DNA of 64,000 bases from an uncultured SAR86 cluster bacterium (GCA_902601475.1 CACKNK010000002.1:135739-199738); one strand, 5' to 3'; shown: positions 17,767 to 32,658, counted from the stretch's first letter. A program made the numbers and translations. The notes: generated by a model from the sequence alone, not told the origin.

Positions 17767-18358
17767 TTTGAAATTTTCTTATCTAGGAAAACAAGCTTAT
17801 CAAGACACATATAAGGATATGAAAGAACATATCCAAAATTTTTCCAGCAATCAGATCTGGATGCTGGAGCATGATGCAGTATTTACCTTGGGCACAGCAG
17901 CAGATGAATCTCACATTATTAATGCTGGTCAGATCCCCGTAATCCAAACCGATCGAGGTGGTGAGGTTACCTATCATGGACCAGGACAACTGGTAATTTA
18001 CTTTTTGATCGACATTAAAGAAATAAAACTTGGACCCAAGGCATTGGTTCAAAAGCTTCAAGAATTAATTTCAAGCATTCTGGGTCATTATGATATTGAA
18101 TCAAGTTTTATAGAGGGTGCACCTGGAGTCTATGTTGATGATAAAAAAATAGCCTCAATTGGGTTAAGGATTTCACAGGGGAAAACCTATCACGGCATTA
18201 GCATCAATGTGGACATGGACCTAACCCCTTTTTCATTTATTAATCCATGTGGGTATGAGGGCTTAGAGGTTACTCAAATAAAAAATTATGATTCAAATGT
18301 GAAAATGAAAGATGTAGAATCTATTGCCCAACAAGAAATAAGTAAAATTTTTGAGTAA
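17756..18358 (+). CDS. lipB: Octanoyltransferase LipB
   Basis: [18 protein letters not shown] and the catalytic region [17 protein letters not shown]...PCG. The exact start is uncertain (GTG at 17756). Confidence 0.9.
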
Positions 18359-19320
18359 TGGAAATCATACCAACAAAAAAAATCGTTAATCGAGATGGCA
18401 TCAAGGCTGTAAAAAATGGCCAAAAAGCCAATAAGTATTCTACGATTCCCAACCAAAAGAAACCGGATTGGATTCGGGTTAAAGCAACCTTTGATAAAAA
18501 CTTTAAGGCAGTTAAGGCACAAGTTGATGGCAAAAGACTTAATACAGTATGCGAGGAGGGTATGTGCCCAAATATGTCAGAGTGCTGGTCAGCAGGTACC
18601 GCAACATTTATGCTCATGGGTTCTGTTTGCACACGTGCCTGTAAGTTTTGTTCTGTAGATACGGGTAATCCAAAAGGATGGCTGGATCAGGATGAACCAC
18701 TCAATACTGCCAAAGCAGTTAAAACTATGGGACTTAAGTATGTTGTCCTAACCTCGGTCAATAGAGATGATTTAGAGGATGGGGGAGCAGAACATTACGC
18801 CAATACAGTCAAGGCCATTAAAGAACTTAATCCCAATACGGCGGTTGAGGCTTTAACACCTGACTTCAAAGGTTTGTCTTCATCAATTGAAACTTTGGTT
18901 AACTGCGGACTCGAAGTATTTGCTCAAAATGTTGAAACTGTGAAAAGACTCACTCACCCAGTTAGGGACATAAGAGCTGGATATCAACAAACTCTAGATG
19001 TGCTTGCAGAATCAAAAAGAATTAATCCCAAGGTGCTAACAAAAACCAGTTTAATACTTGGCTTGGGGGAAACCGATGCTGAGATCGAAGAGACCATGGA
19101 TGATTTAATTAAAAACAAGGTCGACATCCTAACTTTAGGTCAGTATCTAAGACCAACCCTTAATCATTTACCTGTTGAGCGATGGGTAACTCCAGAAGAG
19201 TTTGATAGATATAGAGACATCGGTCTCAAAAAAGGATTTCTTGAAGTGGTTTCTGGGCCCATGGTTAGATCAAGCTACAGAGCTGAAAGAGCTCTAGAGA
19301 AAAATAACGCTGGGCTCTGA
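18358..19320 (+). CDS. lipA: Lipoyl synthase LipA (radical SAM)
   Basis: [13 protein letters not shown] auxiliary cluster and [10 protein letters not shown] radical-SAM cluster. Confidence 0.95.
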
Positions 19321-19369
19321 ATGATAATTATCTTCTTAGATCTTTAACAAAGCAGAAAATTTAAATTCT

Positions 19370-20215
19370 TCAACCCTCACTCAACCAATCATTTACCAAG
19401 TAGGAGGGAAACCAACCATCTTCTCCTTTTTCATGAGCTTCATACCACCCAGAACCACCTTGAAAATCTAGATGAAAATCATGTCGCTCACCTTTATAGT
19501 CAACCGCTCTGATAGTATCTTCATCAAATGGCTTATCTCTATTTTGACCCAAAATACCATCGAATACATTGCAATAGTAGAGCCATGAAAGGTCATATTC
19601 TTCATTGGTGTCAGGATTATCGATAATCAATTTTAGGTCTCTAAGCTTAAAATCGTTAGCTACTTCAAAAGAGGTGTGAAGGGTTCCAGAGGAATAAGGT
19701 ATAACTTCAAATATGACAGTATGCCCCTCTGCAATAGCTTCCTTAGCCCCCAAATGCTGGAAGTCATCGTCACCAATTGGTTTCCAAACACAATCATCTG
19801 CATCAACATTATCTGGAGAACCATATGGAAAACCATAGTCTGTAATAGCCATTTCGATATAGTCAGAGTTTTCAAAATCTTCCATTTCAGTATATTCAAA
19901 CATACACGGGAAAAATGCCTTCTCCTCTCCATCAATACTGGCAGTATATTTGCAGCCTTCATTTCGAGCTGCGATACCATGTGAAATCAATGTAACCTTA
20001 GAATGCTCCTCCACAATCTCTATTGGCTCTCGATAAATTAAACCATTAGCCTCATTTTCTTTTATGCGTTTTTTTTCCTCTTCATCCAATTCAGGTATTC
20101 CAGTTTCCTTAAAAACATTATTAGCATTTTCTTTTAGTAGTTCCTTAGTTGCTGCATCGATTTCGTATGCATAAACTTGGACTCCTGGTGCTTCAATTTT
20201 TAGCTCTAATTTCAT
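19370..20215 (-). CDS. Hypothetical acidic protein (281 aa), last gene of the island operon
   Basis: Long ORF. ATG at 20215 preceded by GGGGA. Asp/Glu-rich. No recognised domain. Confidence 0.5.
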   Translation of the reverse strand: MKLELKIEAPGVQVYAYEIDAATKELLKENANNVFKETGIPELDEEEKKRIKENEANGLIYREPIEIVEEHSKVTLISHGIAARNEGCKYTASIDGEEKAFFPCMFEYTEMEDFENSDYIEMAITDYGFPYGSPDNVDADDCVWKPIGDDDFQHLGAKEAIAEGHTVIFEVIPYSSGTLHTSFEVANDFKLRDLKLIIDNPDTNEEYDLSWLYYCNVFDGILGQNRDKPFDEDTIRAVDYKGERHDFHLDFQGGSGWYEAHEKGEDGWFPSYLVNDWLSEG

Positions 20216-20304
20216 AATTTTTATTTTCCCCAACTTTTAAAATTTAATACTTATTACCTTAGCAGCGATAATATTAATAGGGAAATAAAAAGATTCTGAG
20301 GTGA

Positions 20305-20646
20305 CTATTTAAGATGGATATTGCTACCTTTAGCTGAAAAATCAGCCGCATCAAATTCTTTTTTTTCTATATCATCGCCATAAATTCCAAACATACTGTC
20401 TTGTCCAGGCAGGTAAACAAAAATATACAAACCTCCTCTATTGTGAGCAAAGAAATGATTTTCTCCCCATGCCAACTCATTGGTTTTATAAAGAAAAATT
20501 ATATTTTTTTCTGGATGGTTAATGGGATAAAGGCTGTGTTCATTTCCTAAATCTCCAGTCTTAACAAGTTTTTCTCCGTTAAGGACATTCAAAAAATAAA
20601 CAATGGTGTTTGGTTTTGCATAGTAAATATTGGTTTTTGATTTCAA
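20305..20646 (-). CDS. Hypothetical protein (113 aa)
   Basis: ORF co-oriented with the operon. Only a TTG start is available and there is no clear SD. No recognised domain. Confidence 0.4.
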   Translation of the reverse strand: MKSKTNIYYAKPNTIVYFLNVLNGEKLVKTGDLGNEHSLYPINHPEKNIIFLYKTNELAWGENHFFAHNRGGLYIFVYLPGQDSMFGIYGDDIEKKEFDAADFSAKGSNIHLK

Positions 20647-20668
20647 ATTTTTTAAATACCAAAAATAA

Positions 20669-20905
20669 TTAATGTGCTAAATTAAAAATCACTACAAATA
20701 AGACTCCTGTAGCAAGGACCCCCAGTACACAGATCAACCAATCCACAAAGAACACTTTAAACAGCTTAGCCCAAACACCATCATGAGCTTCATTCGCTGT
20801 GAGTTCTTTTTTGAAGACCTCCATTGCTGCATCTTTAAAAAATGAAAAGACACACAAGAAAGTTAGGCCTCCCAAAAGAAATATAAATGCATTCGTATTG
20901 ATCAT
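20669..20905 (-). CDS. Small 2-TM membrane protein (78 aa)
   Basis: Two hydrophobic helices (AFIFLLGGLTFLCVFSFF and WLICVLGVLATGVLFVVIF). Strong SD AAGGAGAAAACC-ATG. ATGA overlap with the upstream gene. Confidence 0.55.
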   Translation of the reverse strand: MINTNAFIFLLGGLTFLCVFSFFKDAAMEVFKKELTANEAHDGVWAKLFKVFFVDWLICVLGVLATGVLFVVIFNLAH

Positions 20906-21231
20906 GGTTTTCTCCTTAAATTTATTAAAGCTTTAATTATTCTTGAAAGTTCCGCATCAGCCCTTCGGAAATTTGTTTTAGTTAATGTTCTTGCTTGCCA
21001 GTAATCCTCATAACCATCTTCCATCCATTGTTTTCGAAATAATTGAAAGGTCCTTTGCAGGTACTTCTGCAATAATCGGATATCTGCAATTGCGTTAAAA
21101 TTATTCTTTTTTAGCCACGATTCAACTTCAAAAGAATCACTCTGAGCAACTTTTTTTACAAACATTTCTAGAATAGTAGATAACTCAGTATTGATGTTTT
21201 TTAGATCTTTTATTGATTTTGAATCTTTCAT
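20902..21231 (-). CDS. Hypothetical helical protein (109 aa)
   Basis: ORF 7 nt downstream of the HAD gene and translationally coupled to the 2-TM gene. No recognised domain. Confidence 0.5.
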   Translation of the reverse strand: MKDSKSIKDLKNINTELSTILEMFVKKVAQSDSFEVESWLKKNNFNAIADIRLLQKYLQRTFQLFRKQWMEDGYEDYWQARTLTKTNFRRADAELSRIIKALINLRRKP

Positions 21232-21238
21232 GATTAAT

Positions 21239-21820
21239 TTAAAAATTTGTTCTCTTAATCATAGTATCATCAACATGTTTTGGAATAATCCTTATTTTGG
21301 GGAATACCTTTTTGAGCTGAATAAAGCTTTGAATATTATCCATAGAGTCGTCGAACAGATAAGCTGCTTGGTATTGATGAGATTTTAAATATTTACTGAT
21401 AATTAATTTTTTTGCTTCAGCAGTTTTTAGCTTAGCTAAGTTTCCTGCCCTTTCAACATAGATATGATTGATGTCTAATCCTGAGGAGTTTAGGTATTCA
21501 AGAAAAATATCTTTACAATCAAAATCGGATCTTGCTGTTAATAAAATTGTTTTGGAACCATGGGCAGCTTCTTTTATGCAATCCTGCGCCTTTTTAATAA
21601 TTGGATTGATTGGCTGTGACTCATTTACAAATTTTTTTGAGTCCTTGAACTCTGCAAAACAAATGGTTTCATCATCTTTTAACTTAAAGTCCTTTAATTC
21701 TTGCGAGTTTAAATATATTACTTTACCCTCGCTATTTTTTACTTTTGCTCTTGCGGTAGTTCGGAAAAGGGTGTCATCTATATCAAAAACATAGAGAGAT
21801 TTAATATGCCTTCTAGTCAT
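21239..21820 (-). CDS. HAD-superfamily phosphatase (small, capless type)
   Basis: Motif I VFDIDDTLF (DxDxT). Motif II ILLTARS. Motif III/IV K...YLFDDSMDN. Confidence 0.7.
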   Translation of the reverse strand: MTRRHIKSLYVFDIDDTLFRTTARAKVKNSEGKVIYLNSQELKDFKLKDDETICFAEFKDSKKFVNESQPINPIIKKAQDCIKEAAHGSKTILLTARSDFDCKDIFLEYLNSSGLDINHIYVERAGNLAKLKTAEAKKLIISKYLKSHQYQAAYLFDDSMDNIQSFIQLKKVFPKIRIIPKHVDDTMIKRTNF

Positions 21821-22304
21821 AGCTTTCAGAGCTCCAAATCATGTTAAGTTTATTTTTATCAAGCTCCCAAACTTCAACTTTTATGTTTGATGAAAATTCA
21901 AGCGTCAACCCATCTTCGGATAGATGATCTTTCTTATTCCACTGAATTAACATGGCTTTACAAGTATTTTCTTTGGATAAATGTTTGGCTCTAGATTTAA
22001 GATAAATCTTTAGTTGACTCAAGTACTCAATTTTATTTTCTAATGCTGCTTGTTTTGTCTCAATAATAAGGTCTTCTTTTATGCCAAAGTTTTTTTGTTG
22101 AGGTATATAAAAATCAGCAACAATATACCCAACCGGATGCTTTTTATATAACACATCAAGTGAAAGCTCTTTCTCGTAGGCAACTCTAGAATTTATGAAT
22201 TCAACTGCTAATGCAGCTTGCAAAACATTTTCTTTAAATCCTGCACCTAGCTCTCTTTGAATTCGTTTAGAGAGTTTGGTGACGTGTTTATAAAATTCTT
22301 TCAT
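21813..22304 (-). CDS. GxxExxY-family PD-(D/E)xK nuclease-fold protein
   Basis: ELGAGFKENVLQAALAVEF (GxxExxY-like, Y replaced by L), ADFYIP...LIIETKQ (D...E-x-K), YLSQLKIYL. Strong SD AAGGAGGA upstream. Confidence 0.6.
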   Translation of the reverse strand: MKEFYKHVTKLSKRIQRELGAGFKENVLQAALAVEFINSRVAYEKELSLDVLYKKHPVGYIVADFYIPQQKNFGIKEDLIIETKQAALENKIEYLSQLKIYLKSRAKHLSKENTCKAMLIQWNKKDHLSEDGLTLEFSSNIKVEVWELDKNKLNMIWSSESYD

Positions 22305-22339
22305 AGCAAATCCTCCTTAACTGTCTTGTTAATAATTTT

Positions 22340-23752
22340 TTATCCATAAGCATTTACCTCGATTTTATTTTTTATAAATTGCTCAACCCCCTGAATGATT
22401 TTTAGATCTGATGGTGAGGATCTATCTTCTATTAATTCCTCGGCTTCTTTTAAACATGCTGAGCTTGAAGGCCAAGGACCCTCAGATGTCCATCGTTCTC
22501 TAATTAACTCTTGATAATAAGAGGTGAGTTCAGTTGGAAGATCAGATTCATTTTTTTGGGATAAGATTCGGTAGCCAAACTCTTTTGCTCTAGGATCATT
22601 GAATTTTTTGCAAATAAATAACTGCTCTTCCAAGCTCTTTGAATTATGAAATTGTTCAAATAGTTTCTTATCTTCATAGTCGAAGAATTTTTCATAGATT
22701 GTCTCTTCAATAAGGTTTTTCTTTGGCCATTTTCTTTGTTCGGTTTCTGTAGATGCAACAAGAACTTTTTCAATCCAATCTTCATTCCTAGAGTAATTTT
22801 CGGCATTTGAATTCAGCTCTTTCATTGAGCAATCAAAATTGAAGTCAAATTCATTTGCGTCAGCCAAGCCGCTTGATCTATTCAGTCGAATAATTTTGAA
22901 GGGTGATTCAGTAAAAGGTTTTTCTAAAAACTTTGTGATCTCTTCATAACTAAGATTTAAAACTTCATCAACTGGATAGTTAAGGTCCACACATATGGCT
23001 TCATTTTGATTAGTTGGATTGATACCAACGAATTTAATGGGGTATGTCCAAAATCTAGCAAACGGCTGATATCGATAGCCAATTACTTTTGTGTTTTTTA
23101 AAAATTCAGCACAACCTTGTTTTGTTCCCTGGCTCAGAAAGTCTGTTACTAACTTTTCTGCTGATAAATGAAAAAAATTAAGTAACTCGATCATAAAAAT
23201 ACAATCTGATAATGCATCATGTGCATTAGTAGTATCGATGCCGATTCGTTCAGCTACCGAGGATAATGAACATACTGGATGCCCATTTGCATTTATTTCG
23301 AAGTCAATCATCTTTGGGAAGAGCTGACTAACCAATCTGGTTAGCATGAGTAAATCAGATCGGCCATTGCCGTTTGTATTTGTGATGAATGGATCCATTA
23401 AATTCCAAAAGAATTGACGCCTGTATAACTCTTCATCAAAGTTATGACCGTTATAAGTAATAAAAAGGGCAGGGCCATCATTGCTCCAATTTTTCCACTG
23501 ACCATGAATGGTTTTCATCATTTGATAATGTGTTTCTGAGCTAGATAAGGTTTCTATTTTCTTATGAGTTAAATATGCCCCAGGTGAAGGAACCACCCAG
23601 GGTAAGGGAGCACAAGAAACATTCATTGAATCTTGAATGTTGTAATTTTGATCTGTCACCACCGAAGCTGACTGTATTATTTGAATAAAATCTTTTGGAT
23701 CTTTTCCGGTGGTTTCAGTGTCACTAAAGATAAGCTTATTTTGAAATTTCAT
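22340..23752 (-). CDS. sbcB: Exodeoxyribonuclease I-like DEDDh 3'-5' exonuclease (SbcB homologue, divergent)
   Basis: Collinear with my recollection of E. coli ExoI. FSDTETTG (Exo I motif), YNGHNFDEELYRRQFFWNLMDPF (Exo II), GRSDLLMLTRL, NAHDALSDCIFMIEL (Exo III H-x4-D). C-terminal SH3-like/helical region PFKIIRLNRS. 470 aa. Confidence 0.8.
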   Translation of the reverse strand: MKFQNKLIFSDTETTGKDPKDFIQIIQSASVVTDQNYNIQDSMNVSCAPLPWVVPSPGAYLTHKKIETLSSSETHYQMMKTIHGQWKNWSNDGPALFITYNGHNFDEELYRRQFFWNLMDPFITNTNGNGRSDLLMLTRLVSQLFPKMIDFEINANGHPVCSLSSVAERIGIDTTNAHDALSDCIFMIELLNFFHLSAEKLVTDFLSQGTKQGCAEFLKNTKVIGYRYQPFARFWTYPIKFVGINPTNQNEAICVDLNYPVDEVLNLSYEEITKFLEKPFTESPFKIIRLNRSSGLADANEFDFNFDCSMKELNSNAENYSRNEDWIEKVLVASTETEQRKWPKKNLIEETIYEKFFDYEDKKLFEQFHNSKSLEEQLFICKKFNDPRAKEFGYRILSQKNESDLPTELTSYYQELIRERWTSEGPWPSSSACLKEAEELIEDRSSPSDLKIIQGVEQFIKNKIEVNAYG

Positions 23753-24359
23753 TTAATTTTCCTTTTTTATATGAATAGGTTGTTACTTTTTGATCAGCCT
23801 GATCGGTGAAACGCAAGACATCTCCATCCCTTTTGTCTTCGTGCCAATAAGTTAATGAATTTAATCTGCCATCAGGATAGAAGTAAGTTGCTTTGCCATG
23901 TTTTTTTCCAGCTAAGAAGTTGTACTCTCTCCATTTATGGAAATTACTGAGAAAATGAATGAACCTGCCATGCAATAAACCATTGTTAAAATCGGCACTA
24001 ATTTCAATTGATCCATCCTCATGATATGTTTCATAAGTGCCGGTGAACTCAACAACGATGCATTTATTTATAGGTGTTTCATTTGATGGCTCACGAAGAA
24101 TTTCTTTATTATCAATGAGCTTTAAATCCATATATCTACAGAACTTTCCATTTAAATAAAACAAATCCAGCTTGGAATTTTCTCTCAGGACAAATCCAAG
24201 ATTACGATGATCGAATTCTTTATCCCATTCACATTCCAATTCAAATCGAATATCTTCATAATTAGCGTCTTCATCAATCAAATCCTTTTTCTTTTCCAAA
24301 GCTTTTTCACGATCGATGAGCTTTTGTTTGTATTCTTTGAGGTAGATAACTTTTTGCAT
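23736..24359 (-). CDS. MORN-repeat (YwqK-like) protein, first gene of the operon
   Basis: Repeats of the G-x-x-H/K-G...Y...G type: NGLLHGRFIHF, AGKKHGKATYFYPDGRL, EDKRDGDVLRF. Overlaps the ExoI start by 17 nt. Confidence 0.6.
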   Translation of the reverse strand: MQKVIYLKEYKQKLIDREKALEKKKDLIDEDANYEDIRFELECEWDKEFDHRNLGFVLRENSKLDLFYLNGKFCRYMDLKLIDNKEILREPSNETPINKCIVVEFTGTYETYHEDGSIEISADFNNGLLHGRFIHFLSNFHKWREYNFLAGKKHGKATYFYPDGRLNSLTYWHEDKRDGDVLRFTDQADQKVTTYSYKKGKLNEISK

Positions 24360-24383
24360 ATAGATTTATTATGCTTTACCTAT

Positions 24384-24400
24384 ACGACATATAATGTCGT
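24384..24400. promoter_or_regulatory. Operator candidate 1: palindrome ACGACATATAATGTCGT
   Basis: Perfect 7-bp arms around ATA. Lies 24 nt upstream of the MORN-operon start codon (24359, minus strand). Contains a TATAAT hexamer. Confidence 0.6.
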
Positions 24401-24450
24401 CTTTAAAAACATATTCTTAATTTTTGTATTAAAGATAGTAAATTATTGTA

Positions 24451-24467
24451 ACGACATATAATGTCGT
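24451..24467. promoter_or_regulatory. Operator candidate 2: identical palindrome ACGACATATAATGTCGT
   Basis: Identical 17-mer, 67 bp centre-to-centre from copy 1. Ends 13 nt before the WYL-regulator ATG. Followed by TATATGA. Confidence 0.6.
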
Positions 24468-24480
24468 ATATGATCTTGCT

Positions 24481-25482
24481 ATGAATAATGATACATCCTT
24501 ACGTTATTTAGAAATGCTTCAATACTTGCCTGTATATCCTGCTAAAAGATCTTTATCTGAGATTCGATCTCATTTATCGGAGTACGGACATTCGGTGAGC
24601 GATAGAACAATTCAGCGAGACCTTAGAAAGCTTGAAGGATCGTTTGGATTATATTGTGATGATCGGAGTATTCCTCATGGTTGGTGCTGGATGAAGGATG
24701 CAAAAAGGGTAGACATTGCTGCAATGGATCATGCAGAAGCGCTTACCTTGAGTCTTGCTAAAAAATATCTCTCTAGTGTACTGCCTCTTCAGCACTCCTC
24801 TAGAATAACTGGCCTGTTTAAGAGAGCCGAAGCTTTTTTGAATCAAACCCAAAGCTCTGACCTAATAAAATGGAATGATAAAGTAAGAGTAGTGCCTGCT
24901 AGCCATGAATACATAGGCCCAAAAATAAAAGGGGATATTCAACAAGTCATTTATGAAGCAGTCCTTAGAGAAAAAAAATTCAGTGGTAGCTATCAGTCTA
25001 GAGAATCACAAAAACCCAAAAAAGGAATTTATAATCCGTTGGCTATAATTTCACATGGTGTTGTAACGCGAGTCATCTGCACTAGAGAATTAAAAGGAGA
25101 GGCTGATAACTTAATTAGGTATTTACCCCTTCACAGATTTAAATCTGCAAGCCCCTTAGAGGATTCGATCAATATACCAAAAGAATTTGACCTTGATGAA
25201 TATCTTGATAAAGGCGAACTGAATTACTTATACGATAAAGAAATCGATTTGCATTTGGAGTTTTCTCAGAGTGCAGGCTCGCATTTAATTGAGACGCCTT
25301 TTTCTAAAAATCAATCTATAAAAATCATAAAAAATGGATTTATTATTCTTAAAGCAAAGACTCCTTATACAGAAACACTTAAGAGGTGGATTCTTGGTTT
25401 TGGTGACCAAGTAAGAGTATTAGGTCCTTCAAACCTTAAAAAAGAAATTCAAGAAATACATAAAAGATCCATCAAGAAATAG
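24481..25482 (+). CDS. HTH-WYL-WCX transcriptional regulator (BrxR/CapW/PafBC-like)
   Basis: N-terminal wHTH LSEIRSHLSEYGHSVSDRTIQRDLRKLE. Central WYL-type SH3 barrel FSGSY...YNPLAIISHGVVTRVICT...IRYLPLHRFKS. C-terminal WCX LKRWILGFGDQVRVLGPSNLKKEI. Confidence 0.8.
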   Translation: MNNDTSLRYLEMLQYLPVYPAKRSLSEIRSHLSEYGHSVSDRTIQRDLRKLEGSFGLYCDDRSIPHGWCWMKDAKRVDIAAMDHAEALTLSLAKKYLSSVLPLQHSSRITGLFKRAEAFLNQTQSSDLIKWNDKVRVVPASHEYIGPKIKGDIQQVIYEAVLREKKFSGSYQSRESQKPKKGIYNPLAIISHGVVTRVICTRELKGEADNLIRYLPLHRFKSASPLEDSINIPKEFDLDEYLDKGELNYLYDKEIDLHLEFSQSAGSHLIETPFSKNQSIKIIKNGFIILKAKTPYTETLKRWILGFGDQVRVLGPSNLKKEIQEIHKRSIKK

Positions 25483-25506
25483 TATTGATTTTAAGATAAG
25501 AATTGT

Positions 25507-26787
25507 TCAATTTAAGATATCTGTAATATTTAAATCCCTATTCTCATTACCTAAAATTTTTATTTCCAACGGAGAGAATACTTTGCTGGTTTTAGGATGA
25601 TCAAGAAGATATTTATAAGCAAGGGAAAATTCAAAATTTTCAAATTTTTCATATTTTTTTTCCTTCCCTTCTTTTTTGGCTTCTCTAGCAAGTCTTTTTT
25701 CAACTAGGTTTTTTCGCTTTAGACCAAGAAGCTTTCTTGAGTTATCATTTTCTCGAAGCTCCAAACTCATCCTAATTGATGTTATATCTCTTAATGATGC
25801 CAGCACCTTTAATGATATTGGTTCTTTAAATTCTTTCTCTTTTTCGGGCTCCTTGGGATCGTAACTATCTAATCTCGTAAAGTTCTCTAATTTGTCTATC
25901 AGTCTATTAATTCCTCCTAATACGCATTCTTCATAAAGCTTAAATTCAGTAGAGCTTGTTAACCAATAGCTCTGGGCAGACTCTGCTTTTTCACCAGGTT
26001 TATATAATGTTTTTCTAAATCTTGATGCAAGCAAATTCATCCCAAATATTGTTGCTTTAATAGGATTTTCAAAAGCATATTGTTCTTGCTCGTTTTTTGA
26101 ATTCCTATTTCCATAAGGGTTAATTCCATTCAATAATAATAGAGCCCTAATTAATATTGTTCTTTCAACCAGTGCTTGAGGCGTATCATAAATACCATGT
26201 TTGTAGATAAAATTATGATTAAATATCTCTTGCTCTCTATCCTGAAAACTTTTGGTAGTATCTGGTTTTGTATCACTTATGATTTTTTCCACAAACGATC
26301 TAAGATCAGTGTCGTTAATTTTTTTTAATAACAAAGAATCTGGTATTTCTCTTTCATAACTCATCTTTAACAAATCTGAAATTTCCATATCTTCTTTAAA
26401 TGCATTTTCTGCTGATTCTTTTGCATTTTTAAGATCCCAAGTTTTTTTATATAGACTGTTTTCATATTCTTGTTGTCGACATGATGCATATATTGTCCAG
26501 ATATCCTCTAACCATGTGCGAGGCTCATCAAATCGTATTTTTATTTGAGTGCCAACCATGTAATAACAAATATCATTCATTAATTTTTCTTTAACTTGAG
26601 CAAATTTACTGTGCTGCATCTTATTTTTTTCATCAAATAAGTCAGGATTTTCTCTTTTATGTCTAATATTTTTACCCAGGAAATACTCATCAATAATTTT
26701 CTCTATGCCTGCAAATTTACCATTAAGGGTTCTTATTTGACTTCTACAGAATTGAAGAACTGAATTTTTGCTATCATATTTCGCCAT
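25507..26787 (-). CDS. Hypothetical protein (426 aa), no recognised domain, Lys/Glu-rich C-terminal segment
   Basis: Uninterrupted 426-codon ORF with an ATG start, convergent with the WYL gene. Predicted mostly helical. KE-rich stretch LAREAKKEGKEKKYEKFE. Confidence 0.6.
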   Translation of the reverse strand: MAKYDSKNSVLQFCRSQIRTLNGKFAGIEKIIDEYFLGKNIRHKRENPDLFDEKNKMQHSKFAQVKEKLMNDICYYMVGTQIKIRFDEPRTWLEDIWTIYASCRQQEYENSLYKKTWDLKNAKESAENAFKEDMEISDLLKMSYEREIPDSLLLKKINDTDLRSFVEKIISDTKPDTTKSFQDREQEIFNHNFIYKHGIYDTPQALVERTILIRALLLLNGINPYGNRNSKNEQEQYAFENPIKATIFGMNLLASRFRKTLYKPGEKAESAQSYWLTSSTEFKLYEECVLGGINRLIDKLENFTRLDSYDPKEPEKEKEFKEPISLKVLASLRDITSIRMSLELRENDNSRKLLGLKRKNLVEKRLAREAKKEGKEKKYEKFENFEFSLAYKYLLDHPKTSKVFSPLEIKILGNENRDLNITDILN

Positions 26788-26847
26788 TTAATTATTTTAC
26801 ATTAAAATTAATAATTACAAAAAGTTAAAATTATTTATAATTTCTTG

Positions 26848-26876
26848 TTGACATTATTACTAGCAGAGTCTAAATT
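26848..26876 (+). promoter_or_regulatory. Sigma70-type promoter candidate for the acidic-protein genes
   Basis: TTGACA (26848-26853), 17-nt spacer, TAAATT (26871-26876), about 47 nt upstream of the ATG at 26924. Confidence 0.45.
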
Positions 26877-26923
26877 ATTGCCCTCCAATTTTGGAAAATA
26901 TAAAAAATTTTAAAGGAAATAAT

Positions 26924-27205
26924 ATGGCTACAATTAAATATATGCAACTCGAAAAACATCAGGTCTCAGTCAGGAAGGGTATGATCGCTACTACTGAAGA
27001 TTGGGACGGTAACGAGGTAGTATCAGAAGAGGATCTAAGAACTTTTCTAGAAGAAGGCACTACAGGCAATGATGAAACAGACGATATATGCTTAGAACAA
27101 GTCCAAGATTCAGAATGTGTGACTGACAGAGACGAGGATTGGATTAGTGACAGGAAGGGTTATACGGAGGTGGAGTATTACTCAATAGGTCAAGAATTTG
27201 AATAA
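26924..27205 (+). CDS. Small highly acidic protein (93 aa)
   Basis: ATG at 26924 with SD AAAGGAA. Runs of D/E (EEDLRTFLEEGTTGNDETDDICLEQVQDSECVTDRDEDW). Confidence 0.55.
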   Translation: MATIKYMQLEKHQVSVRKGMIATTEDWDGNEVVSEEDLRTFLEEGTTGNDETDDICLEQVQDSECVTDRDEDWISDRKGYTEVEYYSIGQEFE

Positions 27206-27220
27206 ATAAAAACTAACTTT

Positions 27221-27245
27221 TCAAGCTGAACTAAGTTCAGCTTGA
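27221..27245. repeat. Perfect 25-nt inverted repeat (11-bp stem, 3-nt loop)
   Basis: TCAAGCTGAAC-TAA-GTTCAGCTTGA, 15 nt after the stop of the 93-aa gene. No U-tract follows. Confidence 0.6.
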
Positions 27246-27266
27246 GCTAACAACACAGACAAAAAT

Positions 27267-27695
27267 ATGAATTTAAACAAAGACTATGATTGGGCCAGGG
27301 TTATTGGTAAAAGAGATAGTTTACTAATGCAATCAATGGAAGACGATATGAGCCAGGTAATCTTAGATTATCTAGGGGTTGAAAGTGAGGAGGATGTTTC
27401 AAAAGAACATGTCGAGGAACTTTTGGAGATTAGAAAATTTCTAGAAACACCTTTTAGCGAAGGTGGTAAGGGGTTTACCTTAAGTAGTTCACCACATTTT
27501 GAGGTTTTGTATAACTCAATCCAGATGTTGGCAGATGAGATCTTAGAAGAGGCCGAAGGAGTTTCACAAGAAGGAAAAATTGTTAACATTAACAAACAGC
27601 CTAATCAGCCACCTGAAATTAATCTTGATGATGAGTCAATGTGGGATGAGTTAATAGATGAAATGATAGAGGAAGATAAAGATAAGAAGAATTAA
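27267..27695 (+). CDS. Small acidic protein (142 aa)
   Basis: ATG start. D/E-rich throughout, with C-terminal DDESMWDELIDEMIEEDKDKKN. Confidence 0.55.
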   Translation: MNLNKDYDWARVIGKRDSLLMQSMEDDMSQVILDYLGVESEEDVSKEHVEELLEIRKFLETPFSEGGKGFTLSSSPHFEVLYNSIQMLADEILEEAEGVSQEGKIVNINKQPNQPPEINLDDESMWDELIDEMIEEDKDKKN

Positions 27696-27779
27696 TATAA
27701 AAGACACCAAAAAAAGAGTCATATCAACTTAACCTATGACTTAGAAGAAATTTAAAACCATAATAAAAAGGAGAACATT

Positions 27780-27842
27780 ATGAGATTAATTTTAGGAATA
27801 GCACAAGAAGAGCTTTTTAGTAGTTGTTTTAACAATGTGTAG
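27780..27842 (+). CDS. 20-codon mini-ORF (MRLILGIAQEELFSSCFNNV) with strong SD, upstream of the GIY-YIG gene
   Basis: AAGGAG 6 nt before the ATG. Stop lies 33 nt before the 27876 ATG. Too short for the ORF track. Confidence 0.3.
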   Translation: MRLILGIAQEELFSSCFNNV

Positions 27843-27875
27843 AATTAAATTTTTTAATAAAAGGGATGAAATTAT

Positions 27876-28793
27876 ATGAGTTGGAGTGAGTTTAGACCTT
27901 TTACTGATTATATTGATATCAAACATTTCACTGGTTACTCTGGTGGTGGAAAAAATATTTGGAAAACCAAATTACAAGAAGAAGCTAATAAAGAACCAGA
28001 TCTTTTGAGCTTTTCTCAAGCAGAAGGGTGCACACCAGTCAAAGGGGGTGTTCTCGATTATAGAAAAGATAATAGCTCTGGGGAATGCCCTGAAATTACA
28101 TGTGGAATTTACTTTATTCGTATTGATGATGAGAGCGCTAAACATAACGAAGAAACTCCATCTGGATATTATGATTACATTGGTTTGTCATCTAATTTCA
28201 CTAAAAAAACTTTTCAATCCGGCATCTATGGAAGACTATATGATCATTACAGGAAATTAGTATGCCTCCCTAAAAGAGGTAATTTTGGCGAGTTAATTAT
28301 AAGAAATCATTTTAAAGATATTAACTTAAGTAATTTGAATAAAGGCCAGAAAAAGGCTCTACTCAAAAAACATCAACTTAAAGCTATAGAACATCTCCAG
28401 AAGCAATCTTTTGAAGATTACCAAAAACTAAGAGACTATTTTGGGGGAGACGATATAGGTAATAATCTAGATTTATACGGCACTACTGAATACTTCTTTA
28501 AAGCTTTTAAAGCATGCAGTGAAACAAATGATCTGAATACAATTAATGGAATTAAACATTTTTTCAAAGAAAAAGTACATCTTTCATTTTATAAACATAC
28601 ATTTGGTGGTGAAGATCAGTTTCGTTCAAAAGGTAATAACCCGCAAATAAATGAGTCGTGGAAGAAGTTCGTCGAATTTATTGCAAAAGGAGAAGGGGTA
28701 GCTTTAGCAGCTTATAAAAATATAAATGGAAAGTTACCATATTTAAATAAGAGAGATGAGATAAAAAACCTTGATATTCTGCCCAACCACTGA
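27876..28793 (+). CDS. GIY-YIG-like nuclease-domain protein with a large internal insertion
   Basis: CGIYFIRI...YYDYIGLSS...SGIYGRLYDHYRKL (GIY, YIG, Arg-x3-His). A distal E/N region EFIAKGEGVALAAYKNINGKLPYLN lies about 170 aa later. Between them is a K-rich helical insert. Confidence 0.5.
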   Translation: MSWSEFRPFTDYIDIKHFTGYSGGGKNIWKTKLQEEANKEPDLLSFSQAEGCTPVKGGVLDYRKDNSSGECPEITCGIYFIRIDDESAKHNEETPSGYYDYIGLSSNFTKKTFQSGIYGRLYDHYRKLVCLPKRGNFGELIIRNHFKDINLSNLNKGQKKALLKKHQLKAIEHLQKQSFEDYQKLRDYFGGDDIGNNLDLYGTTEYFFKAFKACSETNDLNTINGIKHFFKEKVHLSFYKHTFGGEDQFRSKGNNPQINESWKKFVEFIAKGEGVALAAYKNINGKLPYLNKRDEIKNLDILPNH

Positions 28794-28940
28794 CGTCATT
28801 TTAACAGTAACATCACCAGTTAAACTTTACGAAAAGAATTTAATCAACCACCTCACATCGAAGAAAATTAATAAGGATAATTTTTCAGACTTGCTAGGTA
28901 GATCAAGAGTTAATTTAATCAAAGATTAATTTTCTCTATA

Positions 28941-28957
28941 ACGACAATATGTGTCGT
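28941..28957. promoter_or_regulatory. Operator candidate 3: ACGACAATATGTGTCGT
   Basis: Same 6-bp arms ACGACA/TGTCGT with a 5-nt spacer. Ends 23 nt before the ATG at 28981. Followed by GTATATGA, similar to copy 2. Confidence 0.55.
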
Positions 28958-28980
28958 GTATATGAGTTCTAATAGAACAT

Positions 28981-29487
28981 ATGAAAAAAAATACTGATAA
29001 CTGGTTAAATGTACGGGCAAACTCGAGCATATCATTTAATAATATAACCATCCATAATTCAAAGTATGTGAAAGTTAGCTCGATTAAGGTAACAATTTCA
29101 CTTCATTACTCTGATGATGATGGTACTTGCGTTTTTTTAACTAAAAATCCTCAACTTATTCATATGATGATTGATCGATGTGAAATTGAAAGAAACTTGC
29201 CTTATGGGGAGTGGGAAAAAACCGTTAGATCAATTCTTTTTAAAGAAAAAGGAATAAAAAATAGCGACCTTGATCAGTTTGTTAGTTGGAACCTAGCAAA
29301 CCCATCATTCTCACTGGCAAAGTATAGAAAATGCACAAAAAAAGAAATTGATGCTTTCAGATTTCATCGTGCTGATCAAAGAAGCGAAATTTTGTCTGGT
29401 AATGATAAGGTGGTTTATCAGCAATACATTAAAGCATCCTATAACGACCAAGACAGTTCAGTACCTCACAACTTTGTTATGCCATAG
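28981..29487 (+). CDS. Hypothetical protein (168 aa)
   Basis: ATG ORF directly downstream of operator copy 3. No recognised domain. Confidence 0.55.
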   Translation: MKKNTDNWLNVRANSSISFNNITIHNSKYVKVSSIKVTISLHYSDDDGTCVFLTKNPQLIHMMIDRCEIERNLPYGEWEKTVRSILFKEKGIKNSDLDQFVSWNLANPSFSLAKYRKCTKKEIDAFRFHRADQRSEILSGNDKVVYQQYIKASYNDQDSSVPHNFVMP

Positions 29488-29548
29488 GATTACAATAAGG
29501 TTAATAATATTTTATAAATTATTTTGAGTTAAAAAATGGAGAAAACCA

Positions 29549-29809
29549 ATGAGTGATTTGATTAGAGTGAAAAGAACAAGAACTGTAGTAACGACCTACC
29601 GGGATTTTGCCGATATAGATCGAGAGCAGATGATTAATGATTTAGGAATAACGGTACATGATTATGATGATTTTATGAATGAACTAGAAGATTGGATACT
29701 GAAATGGGAGATGCTTGATAAACCAACAGAGATCGAAGTAGATCAAAGTGAAACAGTTTCAGAGGAGGAGGAACTAGATTGTTGGATAGATGCTGATTGC
29801 ATCGATTAA
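29549..29809 (+). CDS. Small highly acidic protein (86 aa)
   Basis: SD GGAG 8 nt before the ATG. C-terminal EVDQSETVSEEEELDCWIDADCID. Confidence 0.55.
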   Translation: MSDLIRVKRTRTVVTTYRDFADIDREQMINDLGITVHDYDDFMNELEDWILKWEMLDKPTEIEVDQSETVSEEEELDCWIDADCID

Positions 29810-29811
29810 AT

Positions 29812-31140
29812 TTATAAAATTACAAATGGAAAAACTATAACAAATAGCAAAACCAATATTTGGATGATGATAAAAGGAATAACTCCTCTATAAATATCTG
29901 TAGTTTTAATGCTCGCGTCAGCAACCCCTCTCAAGTAAAACAAAGAAAATCCAAAGGGCGGTGTAAGGAAGGATGTCTGTAAGTTGATGGCCATTAATAT
30001 TCCAAGCCAGACAGGATCAAAGCCCATCATTAATAAAGGCGGAGCCACTAGTGGAATAATGACATAACAGATTTCAATGAAATCCAAAATAAAGCCAAAA
30101 AGAAAGATGGCAAAAAGGATAAAGAATAGGGCAGTGTATTTCCCACCTGGCATCATCTCAAAAATTTGATCAACTAAGAGATCACCACCCACTCCTCTAA
30201 AAATTAGTGAAAAAATTGAAGCTCCAATAAGGATGCTAAATATCATGGTGGTAACGGTTGCTGCCTTATAACTGGTTGCTTTAATAAGCTCTAAGTTAGC
30301 ATTGCCATTAATGGCAGCAATAATGAGTGCTCCAAGAGCACCCACTCCAGCAGCTTCAGTAGGCGTTGCTATACCTCCAATAATTGATCCGAGCACAACA
30401 AAAATTAGAGTGGCTGGGGGCAGTAGGGTTTTGAGAATGTTGGCTTCACCTTTAGTTTCTTCAATGACAACAAACTCTTTTTTCCTATTTATTAATATTG
30501 TGTAGATCAAATAGCCAATTACTATCATTAGGCCAGGGACAACCGCTCCAACAAATAAATCACCCACAGAGACCGTTTCCTGAGAGAACACTCCAAGATT
30601 ATTTTGCGCTCTTTGATAGGCATTCGACATCACATCACCGAGCAGTACCAACGCAATTGAGGGCGGAATAATTTGTCCCAATGTTCCTGTTGAAGCAACC
30701 AAGCCGGAGGCAAAGTCCTTGTCATAACCTTGTTTCAACATCGCTGGTAAAGACATTAGTCCCATGGTTACAACGGTAGCACCCACAATTCCAGTGCTGG
30801 CTGCTAAAAGTGCCCCCACAACAATTATTGAAATACTCAATCCCGAATTAGTATTTTTAAAAACGATTGCCATATCTCTTAGCATTTTGGAGGCAATGCC
30901 TGACCTCTCTAAAACCACTCCCATAAACACAAACAAAGGAACAGCCAAAAGCGTTTGATTATTCATGATCCCAAAAAGTCGCATGGGCAAAGTCTTAAAT
31001 AAATTAGCATCAAAGAAACCAAAAACGGTTCCTAGAAGAGCAAATAATATAGAGGTGCCCGCCAAGGTAAATGCAACTGGATACCCGACTAGCAGCGCCA
31101 TGCAAATTAGAGCAATTAAGAGAATGGGGATTATTTCCAT
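29812..31140 (-). CDS. dctM: TRAP transporter large permease (DctM family)
   Basis: About 12 TM helices. N-terminus MEIIPILLIALICMALLVGYPVAFTLAG and the LFVFMG/GIATPTEAAGVGA regions are typical of DctM. Confidence 0.9.
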   Translation of the reverse strand: MEIIPILLIALICMALLVGYPVAFTLAGTSILFALLGTVFGFFDANLFKTLPMRLFGIMNNQTLLAVPLFVFMGVVLERSGIASKMLRDMAIVFKNTNSGLSISIIVVGALLAASTGIVGATVVTMGLMSLPAMLKQGYDKDFASGLVASTGTLGQIIPPSIALVLLGDVMSNAYQRAQNNLGVFSQETVSVGDLFVGAVVPGLMIVIGYLIYTILINRKKEFVVIEETKGEANILKTLLPPATLIFVVLGSIIGGIATPTEAAGVGALGALIIAAINGNANLELIKATSYKAATVTTMIFSILIGASIFSLIFRGVGGDLLVDQIFEMMPGGKYTALFFILFAIFLFGFILDFIEICYVIIPLVAPPLLMMGFDPVWLGILMAINLQTSFLTPPFGFSLFYLRGVADASIKTTDIYRGVIPFIIIQILVLLFVIVFPFVIL

Positions 31141-32403: not shown

Positions 32404-32658
32404 ATGCAAATTTTCTTAAACATTAGCCAAGTTGAACCTGAGGATACTCTAAGTGAAATGAAAGATCATGGTCTTGAATTTGAAACAGTTTCAGTTGAGG
32501 CAGATATGATGAATGGCTCATCTATAGTGACTGCAAACGTTAGTGATCTTTCTGAATTTCTGAACAAACTTAATGCGATTAAGGATGAAAATGAATACGA
32601 GTTGGAAATGTTAAGTGCAATTTTAGACGATGAGGATAACTGCCACTTCGAATACTAA
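32404..32658 (+). CDS. Small acidic protein (84 aa)
   Basis: Strong SD AGGAGG 6 nt before the ATG. D/E-rich. No recognised domain. Confidence 0.5.
   Translation: MQIFLNISQVEPEDTLSEMKDHGLEFETVSVEADMMNGSSIVTANVSDLSEFLNKLNAIKDENEYELEMLSAILDDEDNCHFEY

Follow-up and report, generated by a model that had tools for sequence, protein, structure and literature searches.

In the 64,000-nt stretch of SAR86 DNA analysed here (the window; C2:135739-199738 of a 1,352,762-bp assembly of 22 contigs that is approximately 81 % complete), a 17-bp palindrome, ACGACAATATGTGTCGT, precedes the gene for a 168-aa protein of an orphan family. Judged by its sequence, this palindrome, termed box 3, is a conserved site of the DriD/DdaA-type WYL regulators of the DNA-damage response, by which it would be expected to be bound. 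Two sister sites, boxes 1 and 2, are located at the gene of a regulator of this kind in the same genomic island (Table 1). Box 3 is likely to be a functional site of this regulator, which has a winged helix-turn-helix (wHTH)-WYL-WCX architecture and would activate the 168-aa gene in response to single-stranded DNA (ssDNA) or DNA damage. An earlier note on this DNA had called box 3 the third copy of an operator, and had compared the 168-aa gene and the following gene for an acidic 86-aa protein to a toxin-antitoxin or effector-immunity pair.

Box 3 and its sister sites

The palindrome at 28941-28957, its arms and spacing, and its distance to the start codon are all present in the sequence as the earlier note described them. 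Box 3 is directly followed by GTATATGA, and 23 nt separate its end from the ATG at 28981, with which the 168-aa open reading frame begins. Searching the window for ACGACA-N5-TGTCGT with at most one mismatch returned exactly three matches (24384, 24451, and 28941). Shuffled windows contained a mean of 0.01 matches and none of 100 shuffles reached three, which bears out the earlier estimate that a chance match is expected far less than once per window. A genome-wide excess of the motif would have weakened the proposed link; a scan of the whole assembly returned the same three sites only, all of them inside a single 4.6-kb part of the island. Matches with two mismatches were few and scattered, and when the spacing in ACGAC-Nx-GTCGT was varied from 0 to 14 over the whole assembly, no site was found besides those with spacing 7.

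Each copy lies upstream of a start codon, as had been claimed, with the restriction that the ATG belonging to copy 1 is that of the MORN gene on the minus strand, 24 nt away. The TATATGA after copy 2, to which the letters after copy 3 had been called close, is indeed present, but at copy 3 it is not kept in relatives. Some of the shared letters belong to the outer AT of the DriD consensus of 21 bp, and those at copy 2 are also the -10 of the WYL promoter.

DriD of Caulobacter crescentus is a transcriptional activator with a wHTH-three-helix bundle-WYL-WCX architecture, which senses ssDNA in a response to DNA damage that is independent of SOS. Its binding site has the consensus ATACGAC(N7)GTCGTAT, with an AT-rich spacer (PMC10853764), and box 3 resembles it in both its palindromic CGAC-N7-GTCG core and its AT-rich spacer. 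The driD homologues of Alphaproteobacteria carry a CGNC-N7-GNCG site at a mean distance of approximately 17 nt from their own start codon (PMC10853764); as in Caulobacter, a box is found here near the start codon of the regulator, which is divergent from the presumably activated operon. DdaA of the Moraxellaceae binds CGWCA-N5-TGWCG (PMC12392091), a pattern that fits all three boxes of the window. Using an electrophoretic mobility shift assay, it was shown that DdaA of A. baylyi binds CGACAATATGTGTCG in the aciT promoter (PMC13010146). This 15-mer is letter-identical to window positions 28942-28956, such that box 3 reads A-CGACAATATGTGTCG-T.

Conservation of the box 3 promoter

All three boxes are present in seven of seven loci from genomes or long contigs (the window, G006, G001, G180, and three metagenome contigs), and in each of these exactly 23 nt separate the third box from the start codon of the 168-aa homologue. 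A scan of metagenomes yielded 34 further loci, of which 31 include upstream DNA. In 23 of these 31, the 17-mer is unchanged and the ATG is at +24 after the box; the other eight differ at the outermost base or bases only (GCGAC, or GTCGC/GTCGA) and keep the CGAC-N7-GTCG core. When 32 distinct promoter sequences from related loci were aligned, a phylogenetic footprint appeared: C2-G3-A4-C5 and T12-G13-T14-C15-G16 are invariant in all 32, as is the position of the ATG at +24, and the 7-nt centre of the box comes in no fewer than 12 variants. Conservation is lacking in the 20 nt upstream of box 3; downstream of it T+11, A+14, and T+16 are invariant in all 32 promoters.

The earlier proposals that the three copies answer to one regulator, and that the 168-aa gene belongs to the regulon of the nuclease operon, gain support from the uniqueness of the motif in the genome, from its invariant arms and position in the 32 promoters, and from its identity to the published DriD/DdaA box. 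Because the boxes, the WYL gene, and the 168-aa gene recur together across loci, the nuclease operon, box 1, box 2, the WYL gene, box 3, and the 168-aa gene can be regarded as a conserved module. In some strains, this one included, variable cargo separates the WYL gene from box 3. Here, the cargo includes a gene for a 305-aa protein (27876-28793) just upstream of box 3, which is counted as cargo because it shares no more than 25-58 % identity with its counterparts in related loci; the protein has no match in Pfam, PADLOC, PHROGs, or NCBIfam.

The WYL regulator of the island

The 333-aa regulator contains Pfam WCX (1.5e-11) and WYL domains, and 13 nt lie between box 2 and its ATG. A profile built from 17 homologues with 27-81 % identity was compared with the PDB. 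Chains of DriD (7u02, 7tzv, 9cu3, 9pfq, and 8tp8) were the best matches, with E-values of approximately 1e-13, followed by PafC at 1e-7 and then by PafBC/PafB. The only other PDB chains with E-values under 0.01 were wHTH domains of ArgR; no further WYL-regulator chain was found in the PDB below this threshold.

Among the 17 homologues, the presumed recognition helix has an invariant R42, T43, and R46 and an almost invariant Q45 (R42-T43-x-Q45-R46). The bases of the site are read by an arginine pair in both DriD (R37/R41; PMC10853764) and DdaA (R47/R51; PMC13010146). R42 and R46 share the i/i+4 spacing of these pairs, a correspondence established by motif and not by a computed alignment. In the proposed mechanism, a dimer of the regulator would read the two CGAC half-sites via the conserved R42 and R46.

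The distribution of the regulator follows that of its presumed target. Close orthologues (at least 88 % identity) occur in four of 266 SAR86 genomes, G000, G001, G006, and G180, and the same four carry a close 168-aa gene. A WYL gene was found upstream of the 168-aa gene in 25 of the 34 metagenome contigs, the remainder being mainly short of upstream DNA, and in several loci the 168-aa gene directly follows the WYL gene. The box is not confined to this lineage: it is also present beside WYL genes of other SAR86 clades and, in other marine bacteria, WYL homologues with 43-49 % identity have the same box beside genes for PD-(D/E)XK or RNase_T nucleases.

Some more distant arrangements may be mentioned here. 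In four loci from other marine bacteria (L042-L045), WYL homologues with 34-49 % identity keep the box and are divergent from PD-(D/E)XK_1, PD-(D/E)XK_3, RNase_T, or MORN genes; the WYL gene of L045 precedes a cluster of RmuC, large helicase, and MZB (DUF1998) genes that looks like a defence system. Another SAR86 WYL clade (approximately 35 % identity; L062:2699, L063:2693, and L066:2702) carries a box shortly after the WYL gene, on its downstream side; a perfect TATAAT begins 9 nt further on and is separated by 6 nt from an ATG. This ATG starts, at two of the three loci, a 62-aa protein (MGNLEDICLKLIG...) that looks like a leaderless small-protein target.

Promoter anatomy

Box 3 is followed by 10 nt, the hexamer TYTAAT at +11 to +16, 7 nt, and the ATG. 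On the minus strand, box 1 has almost the same layout: 10 nt, (C/T)ATAAT at +11 to +16 (24368-24373), 8 nt, and the MORN ATG at +25. Neither promoter contains a -35 hexamer or a Shine-Dalgarno sequence. In promoters activated by DriD, the box overlaps the position of an absent -35 and is located at a fixed distance from the -10; a "-35-optimised" version of the site carries TTGACA at core positions 5-10 (PMC13004042). The geometry of this oligonucleotide implies a -10 at +10/+11 after the 17-bp core, within 1 bp of the +11 observed here. Box 3 thus has the arrangement of a DriD-activated promoter, provided that TYTAAT acts as the -10.

Two other placements of the -10 at box 3 were considered. 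A promoter of the box 2 type, with the -10 right after the box, was rejected as neither +2 to +7 nor the presumed -35 is conserved in relatives. TAATAG at +13 to +18 was ranked lower, since it never has T at the last position and is shifted by 3 nt in one clade.

The distance between box and ATG is rigid and the sequence between them is variable, which argues for an mRNA that starts at the ATG itself. The mRNA of the 168-aa gene is therefore probably leaderless.

Box 2 is placed differently. It takes up the spacer within a complete promoter, TTGTAA(24446)-17-TATGAT(24474), from which 6 nt lead to the ATG at 24481. This position suggests autoregulation of the regulator; driD was not regulated by the equivalent site in Caulobacter. 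On the minus strand, 10 nt separate box 2 from TACTAT at +11 to +16 (TATTCT in the most distant locus), the geometry being that of boxes 1 and 3. Besides its place in the regulator's own promoter, box 2 may therefore serve a second promoter of the nuclease operon, upstream of the first (window 24401-24450).

The following course of events is proposed. Box 3 would take the place of a -35, with TYTAAT, 10 nt after the box, as the only other promoter-like element. Upon a build-up of ssDNA, caused by DNA damage or possibly by phage or foreign DNA, the bound regulator would recruit RNA polymerase. An essentially leaderless mRNA would then start from or near the ATG at 28981 and specify the 168-aa protein and, in this strain, the 86-aa acidic protein. 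The same signal would turn on the divergent exonuclease/nuclease/phosphatase operon via box 1, and box 2 occupies a place in the regulator's own promoter spacer that would suit autoregulation.

The 168-aa orphan protein

The earlier statement that the 168-aa protein has no recognisable domain was borne out: neither this protein nor the 86-aa protein has a match in Pfam, PADLOC, PHROGs, or NCBIfam. In metagenomes, 63 clusters of homologues of the 168-aa protein were found (approximately 62-95 % identity, full-length matches), among which Pfam gave a single dubious match, on a chimeric fragment. A profile search of 1.84 billion representatives returned only 34 relatives, most of them 145-163 aa long and starting near query residue 17. 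Of 266 SAR86 genomes, 11 contain the family; no match was obtained in 400 genomes of other Gammaproteobacteria or, by tblastn, in phage and plasmid collections.

P40, I60, I64, W103, C118, G140, and Y149 are near-invariant in the family. Such positions are few, and part of the family has another residue in place of H61 or of C118; no catalytic set is thus evident. A first AlphaFold model, based on 13 close homologues, was poor (predicted local distance difference test, pLDDT, 68.6) and had no fold match; a second, based on 21 diverse homologues, reached a pLDDT of 88.1 and a predicted template modelling score of 0.80. Foldseek searches with the second model gave no match in the PDB (best E-value 0.98) or BFVD (best E-value 0.05), with TM-scores below 0.3.

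Distant homologues (25-33 % identity) are located in the same interval between lipA and dctM, adjoining dctM, in other SAR86 genera. Their loci contain entirely different cargo, no WYL gene, and no box, and the genes have leaders with a GGAG or GAGG Shine-Dalgarno sequence. This pattern suggests that, in one lineage, the WYL regulon acquired a gene already resident in this hotspot. In one locus (L041:45-1792), a distant homologue is found immediately downstream of a gene of the phage-integrase family, on the same strand.

In view of its regulon, the 168-aa protein, which does not look like an enzyme, is most likely an accessory effector of a local response to damage or ssDNA and not one half of a toxin-antitoxin pair. 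That it is a damage-induced arrest or modulatory factor is the most attractive guess, but only a guess, drawn from DidA in the DriD regulon and AciT in that of DdaA, both of which are lineage-specific and have no part in repair. A more far-reaching version, which is considered rather improbable, holds that a new-fold effector restricted to SAR86 was captured by promoter replacement, a box and a leaderless start taking the place of the Shine-Dalgarno leader, and that it acts either as a counterpart of DidA, AciT, and SulA in growth or division arrest or as a modulator of the co-induced nucleases.

Alternative readings of the site and of the gene pair

The main rival to activation agrees with it on the regulon and reverses the sign: box 3 would be an operator at which the WYL protein blocks the polymerase until ssDNA releases it, in the manner of CapW and BrxR. 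The box does overlap the core promoter (about -24 to -40 from the ATG), box 2 is indeed placed in the spacer of a complete promoter, and ssDNA-sensing WYL repressors have been documented (PMC11662680). CapW and BrxR are WYL repressors of defence systems, with sites that overlap promoters; they share with the present case the wHTH-WYL-WCX architecture, the promoter-overlapping palindrome beside the regulated genes, and the setting in a variable genomic island. A promoter under repression must, however, be strong by itself. An operator overlapping a complete, self-sufficient promoter is seen only at box 2, whereas the upstream flank of box 3 is unconserved, a conserved -35 is missing, and the -10 is weak. 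The absence of a -35 hexamer at both box 1 and box 3 favours activation, and the geometry at box 3 equals that of DriD-activated promoters within 1 bp. The PDB matches of the regulator profile are the activators DriD and PafBC, no chain other than those of DriD, PafB/C, and ArgR having reached an E-value of 0.01, and PADLOC detected no recognisable defence system, only generic WYL, SbcB, and DEDDh models. Repression of the 168-aa gene is accordingly considered unlikely. The term operator, used in the earlier note, implies repression: boxes 1 and 3 show DriD-type activation anatomy and only box 2 is repressor-like. Several observations nevertheless weigh against activation by a DriD-like protein. 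Single-sequence PDB searches with the whole regulator and with its N-terminal 139 aa returned nothing significant, and the HMMER profile alignment to DriD spans residues 155-329 only, that is, the WYL-WCX region and not the wHTH. In none of the 32 promoters does the candidate -10 of box 3 have A as its second base, an unusual feature for a sigma-70 element, and leaderless transcripts are infrequent among Gammaproteobacteria. For DdaA, sites approximately 50 bp upstream of transcription starts are reported, a differing geometry (PMC12392091). The existence of WYL repressors such as CapW and BrxR counts here as well, and the role predicted for the 168-aa protein derives entirely from its regulon context. 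It is also conceivable that the palindrome has no role for the 168-aa gene at all and is a chance match, a relic, or part of the upstream gene's transcript, as a hairpin or terminator. With its 6-bp inverted repeat and 5-nt loop, the sequence could fold as RNA, and it is found 148 nt downstream of the stop codon of the 305-aa gene. Chance would provide only 0.01 such sites per window. Across the 32 sequences, the arms do not vary and show no compensatory changes, and the ATG is always equally far from the box. The box also accompanies the 168-aa gene where another gene, or the WYL gene itself, is located upstream. The repeat lacks a subsequent run of T and was not picked by the terminator scan. 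This explanation is considered extremely improbable.

Some observations favour the idea that the two genes are a toxin-antitoxin or effector-immunity pair, with its expression linked to the nuclease system. The 86-aa protein is as acidic as the earlier note had stated (26 Asp/Glu among 86 residues), and its isoelectric point (pI) of 4.05 contrasts with the 9.06 of the 168-aa protein. The two genes are adjacent on the same strand without a terminator-like site between them; as the sole terminator-like hairpin after box 3 is at the end of the 86-aa gene, this gene is probably co-transcribed with the 168-aa gene in this strain. Where present, it always follows the 168-aa stop by approximately 65 nt. 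Strict co-inheritance, which would be expected of such a pair, is lacking: the 86-aa gene is present in approximately 10 of approximately 29 loci with enough downstream DNA and absent in approximately 19 informative loci, that is, in about two thirds, many of which have dctM 100-150 nt after the 168-aa gene. A facultative gene does not behave as an antitoxin or immunity partner. In the window, the pair has a 61-nt gap and separate ribosome binding sites. Neither member matches any toxin-antitoxin, immunity, or defence family in Pfam, PADLOC, PHROGs, or NCBIfam, and the predicted fold of the 168-aa protein has no match in the PDB or BFVD. Similar small acidic genes, furthermore, move about the island. 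The pair reading has therefore not stood up, and is very improbable.

The mobility of the small acidic genes is of some interest in itself. They are found at differing places depending on the strain and encode, in this window, among others proteins of 104, 142, and 84 aa. Four small, very acidic proteins with pI values of 4.05-4.17 are encoded here (window 26891-27695, 29549-29809, and 32404-32658). Homologues of the 84-aa protein (32404) are encoded inside the island in three other loci (L009, L015, and L021), which indicates that such genes move between positions.

The island and the co-regulated nuclease operon

The island is bounded by lipA (18358-19320) and dctM (29812-31140). Its minus-strand operon encodes an ExoI-like protein that matches the NCBIfam exodeoxyribonuclease I model at 5.8e-41, under that model's curated cut-off, and the PADLOC SbcB model at 7e-55. 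A 193-aa protein (21239-21820, minus strand) weakly matches RNA-repair HAD domains and a phage polynucleotide-kinase family (phrog_415, 7e-07); these matches would fit a DNA-end-processing role of the operon. LexA and RecA are also encoded in the genome. Given their presence and the restriction of the boxes to three, the regulator appears to be local to the island and not a replacement of the SOS response.

The lipA-dctM interval (window 19321-29811; L036-L040) is a hypervariable hotspot across SAR86 genera, with wholly different cargo elsewhere, e.g., unknown proteins of 1116 and 1249 aa. tRNA genes, a sign of mobile elements, were sought in the window and none was found.

Table 1 Coordinates of the features in the window that are discussed in the text
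Feature	Position	Strand	Remarks
Box 3	28941..28957	.	17-bp palindrome ACGACAATATGTGTCGT, core CGAC-N7-GTCG; putative DriD/DdaA-type WYL-regulator site
-10-like hexamer TCTAAT (family TYTAAT)	28968..28973	+	+11 to +16 after box 3; candidate -10
168-aa basic protein	28981..29487	+	pI 9.06; SAR86-only orphan family; no Shine-Dalgarno sequence; probably leaderless
86-aa acidic protein	29549..29809	+	pI 4.05; own GGAG Shine-Dalgarno sequence; facultative; probably co-transcribed in this strain
Terminator-like hairpin	29789..29803	+	At the end of the 86-aa gene; no other such site follows box 3; from a consensus scan only
Box 1	24384..24400	.	ACGACATATAATGTCGT; would serve the minus-strand MORN/ExoI-like/PD-(D/E)XK/HAD operon
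Box 2	24451..24467	.	Within the spacer of the WYL regulator's own promoter
HTH-WYL-WCX regulator, 333 aa	24481..25482	+	Pfam WCX and WYL; presumed binder of the three boxes
Nuclease operon	21239..24359	-	MORN-repeat protein, ExoI-like exonuclease, PD-(D/E)XK_3 nuclease, HAD/polynucleotide-phosphatase-like protein

Relation to known systems and significance

The site and its presumed regulator join the known DriD/DdaA kind. With DriD they share the box consensus, the location of the box over an absent -35 at a fixed distance from the -10, and the nature of the presumed targets, which include nucleases, an exonuclease, and small proteins that are lineage-specific or of unknown function; chains of DriD are also the best PDB matches of the regulator profile. 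They differ from it in belonging to the gammaproteobacterial SAR86 instead of an alphaproteobacterium, in a similarity that is seen by profile only and in the WYL-WCX region only, and in having an unrelated, soluble 168-aa protein as a target instead of DidA. DriD differs further in its reach, as the three boxes found here belong to one accessory island of a genome with LexA and RecA and would act locally.

DdaA of Acinetobacter and other Moraxellaceae is a WYL activator of DNA-damage and anti-phage genes, including that of the division inhibitor AciT. Besides its occurrence in Gammaproteobacteria, the DdaA regulon has in common with the present one the binding pattern CGWCA-N5-TGWCG, a site in the aciT promoter that equals the core of box 3, the spacing of the arginine pair in the presumed recognition helix, and the inclusion of a lineage-specific protein that does not act in repair. 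Unlike the SAR86 regulator, DdaA replaces LexA and acts at many loci (recA, ssb, uvrA, and CRISPR and restriction-modification genes). Its boxes are reported to be located approximately 50 bp upstream of transcription starts, and approximately 160 bp before aciT, instead of 23 nt before an ATG.

In conclusion, the SAR86 setting and the island-local regulon beside an intact LexA and RecA are new to this kind of regulation, as are the apparently leaderless targets and the inclusion of an orphan family as a conserved target of the regulon. To our knowledge, WYL activators of the DriD/DdaA type have been described only from 2022 to 2026, and in two cultured genera. The same box, promoter geometry, and nuclease-centred regulon are now seen in an uncultured, genome-streamlined SAR86 bacterium, and a tempting toxin-antitoxin reading has been corrected. 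The clean assignment of an orphan family to a WYL regulon by comparative genomics provides a cheap and concrete test of a protein that is otherwise out of reach. If the effector reading were true, the 168-aa protein would be a damage-induced arrest or nuclease-modulating factor in highly abundant, uncultured marine bacteria.

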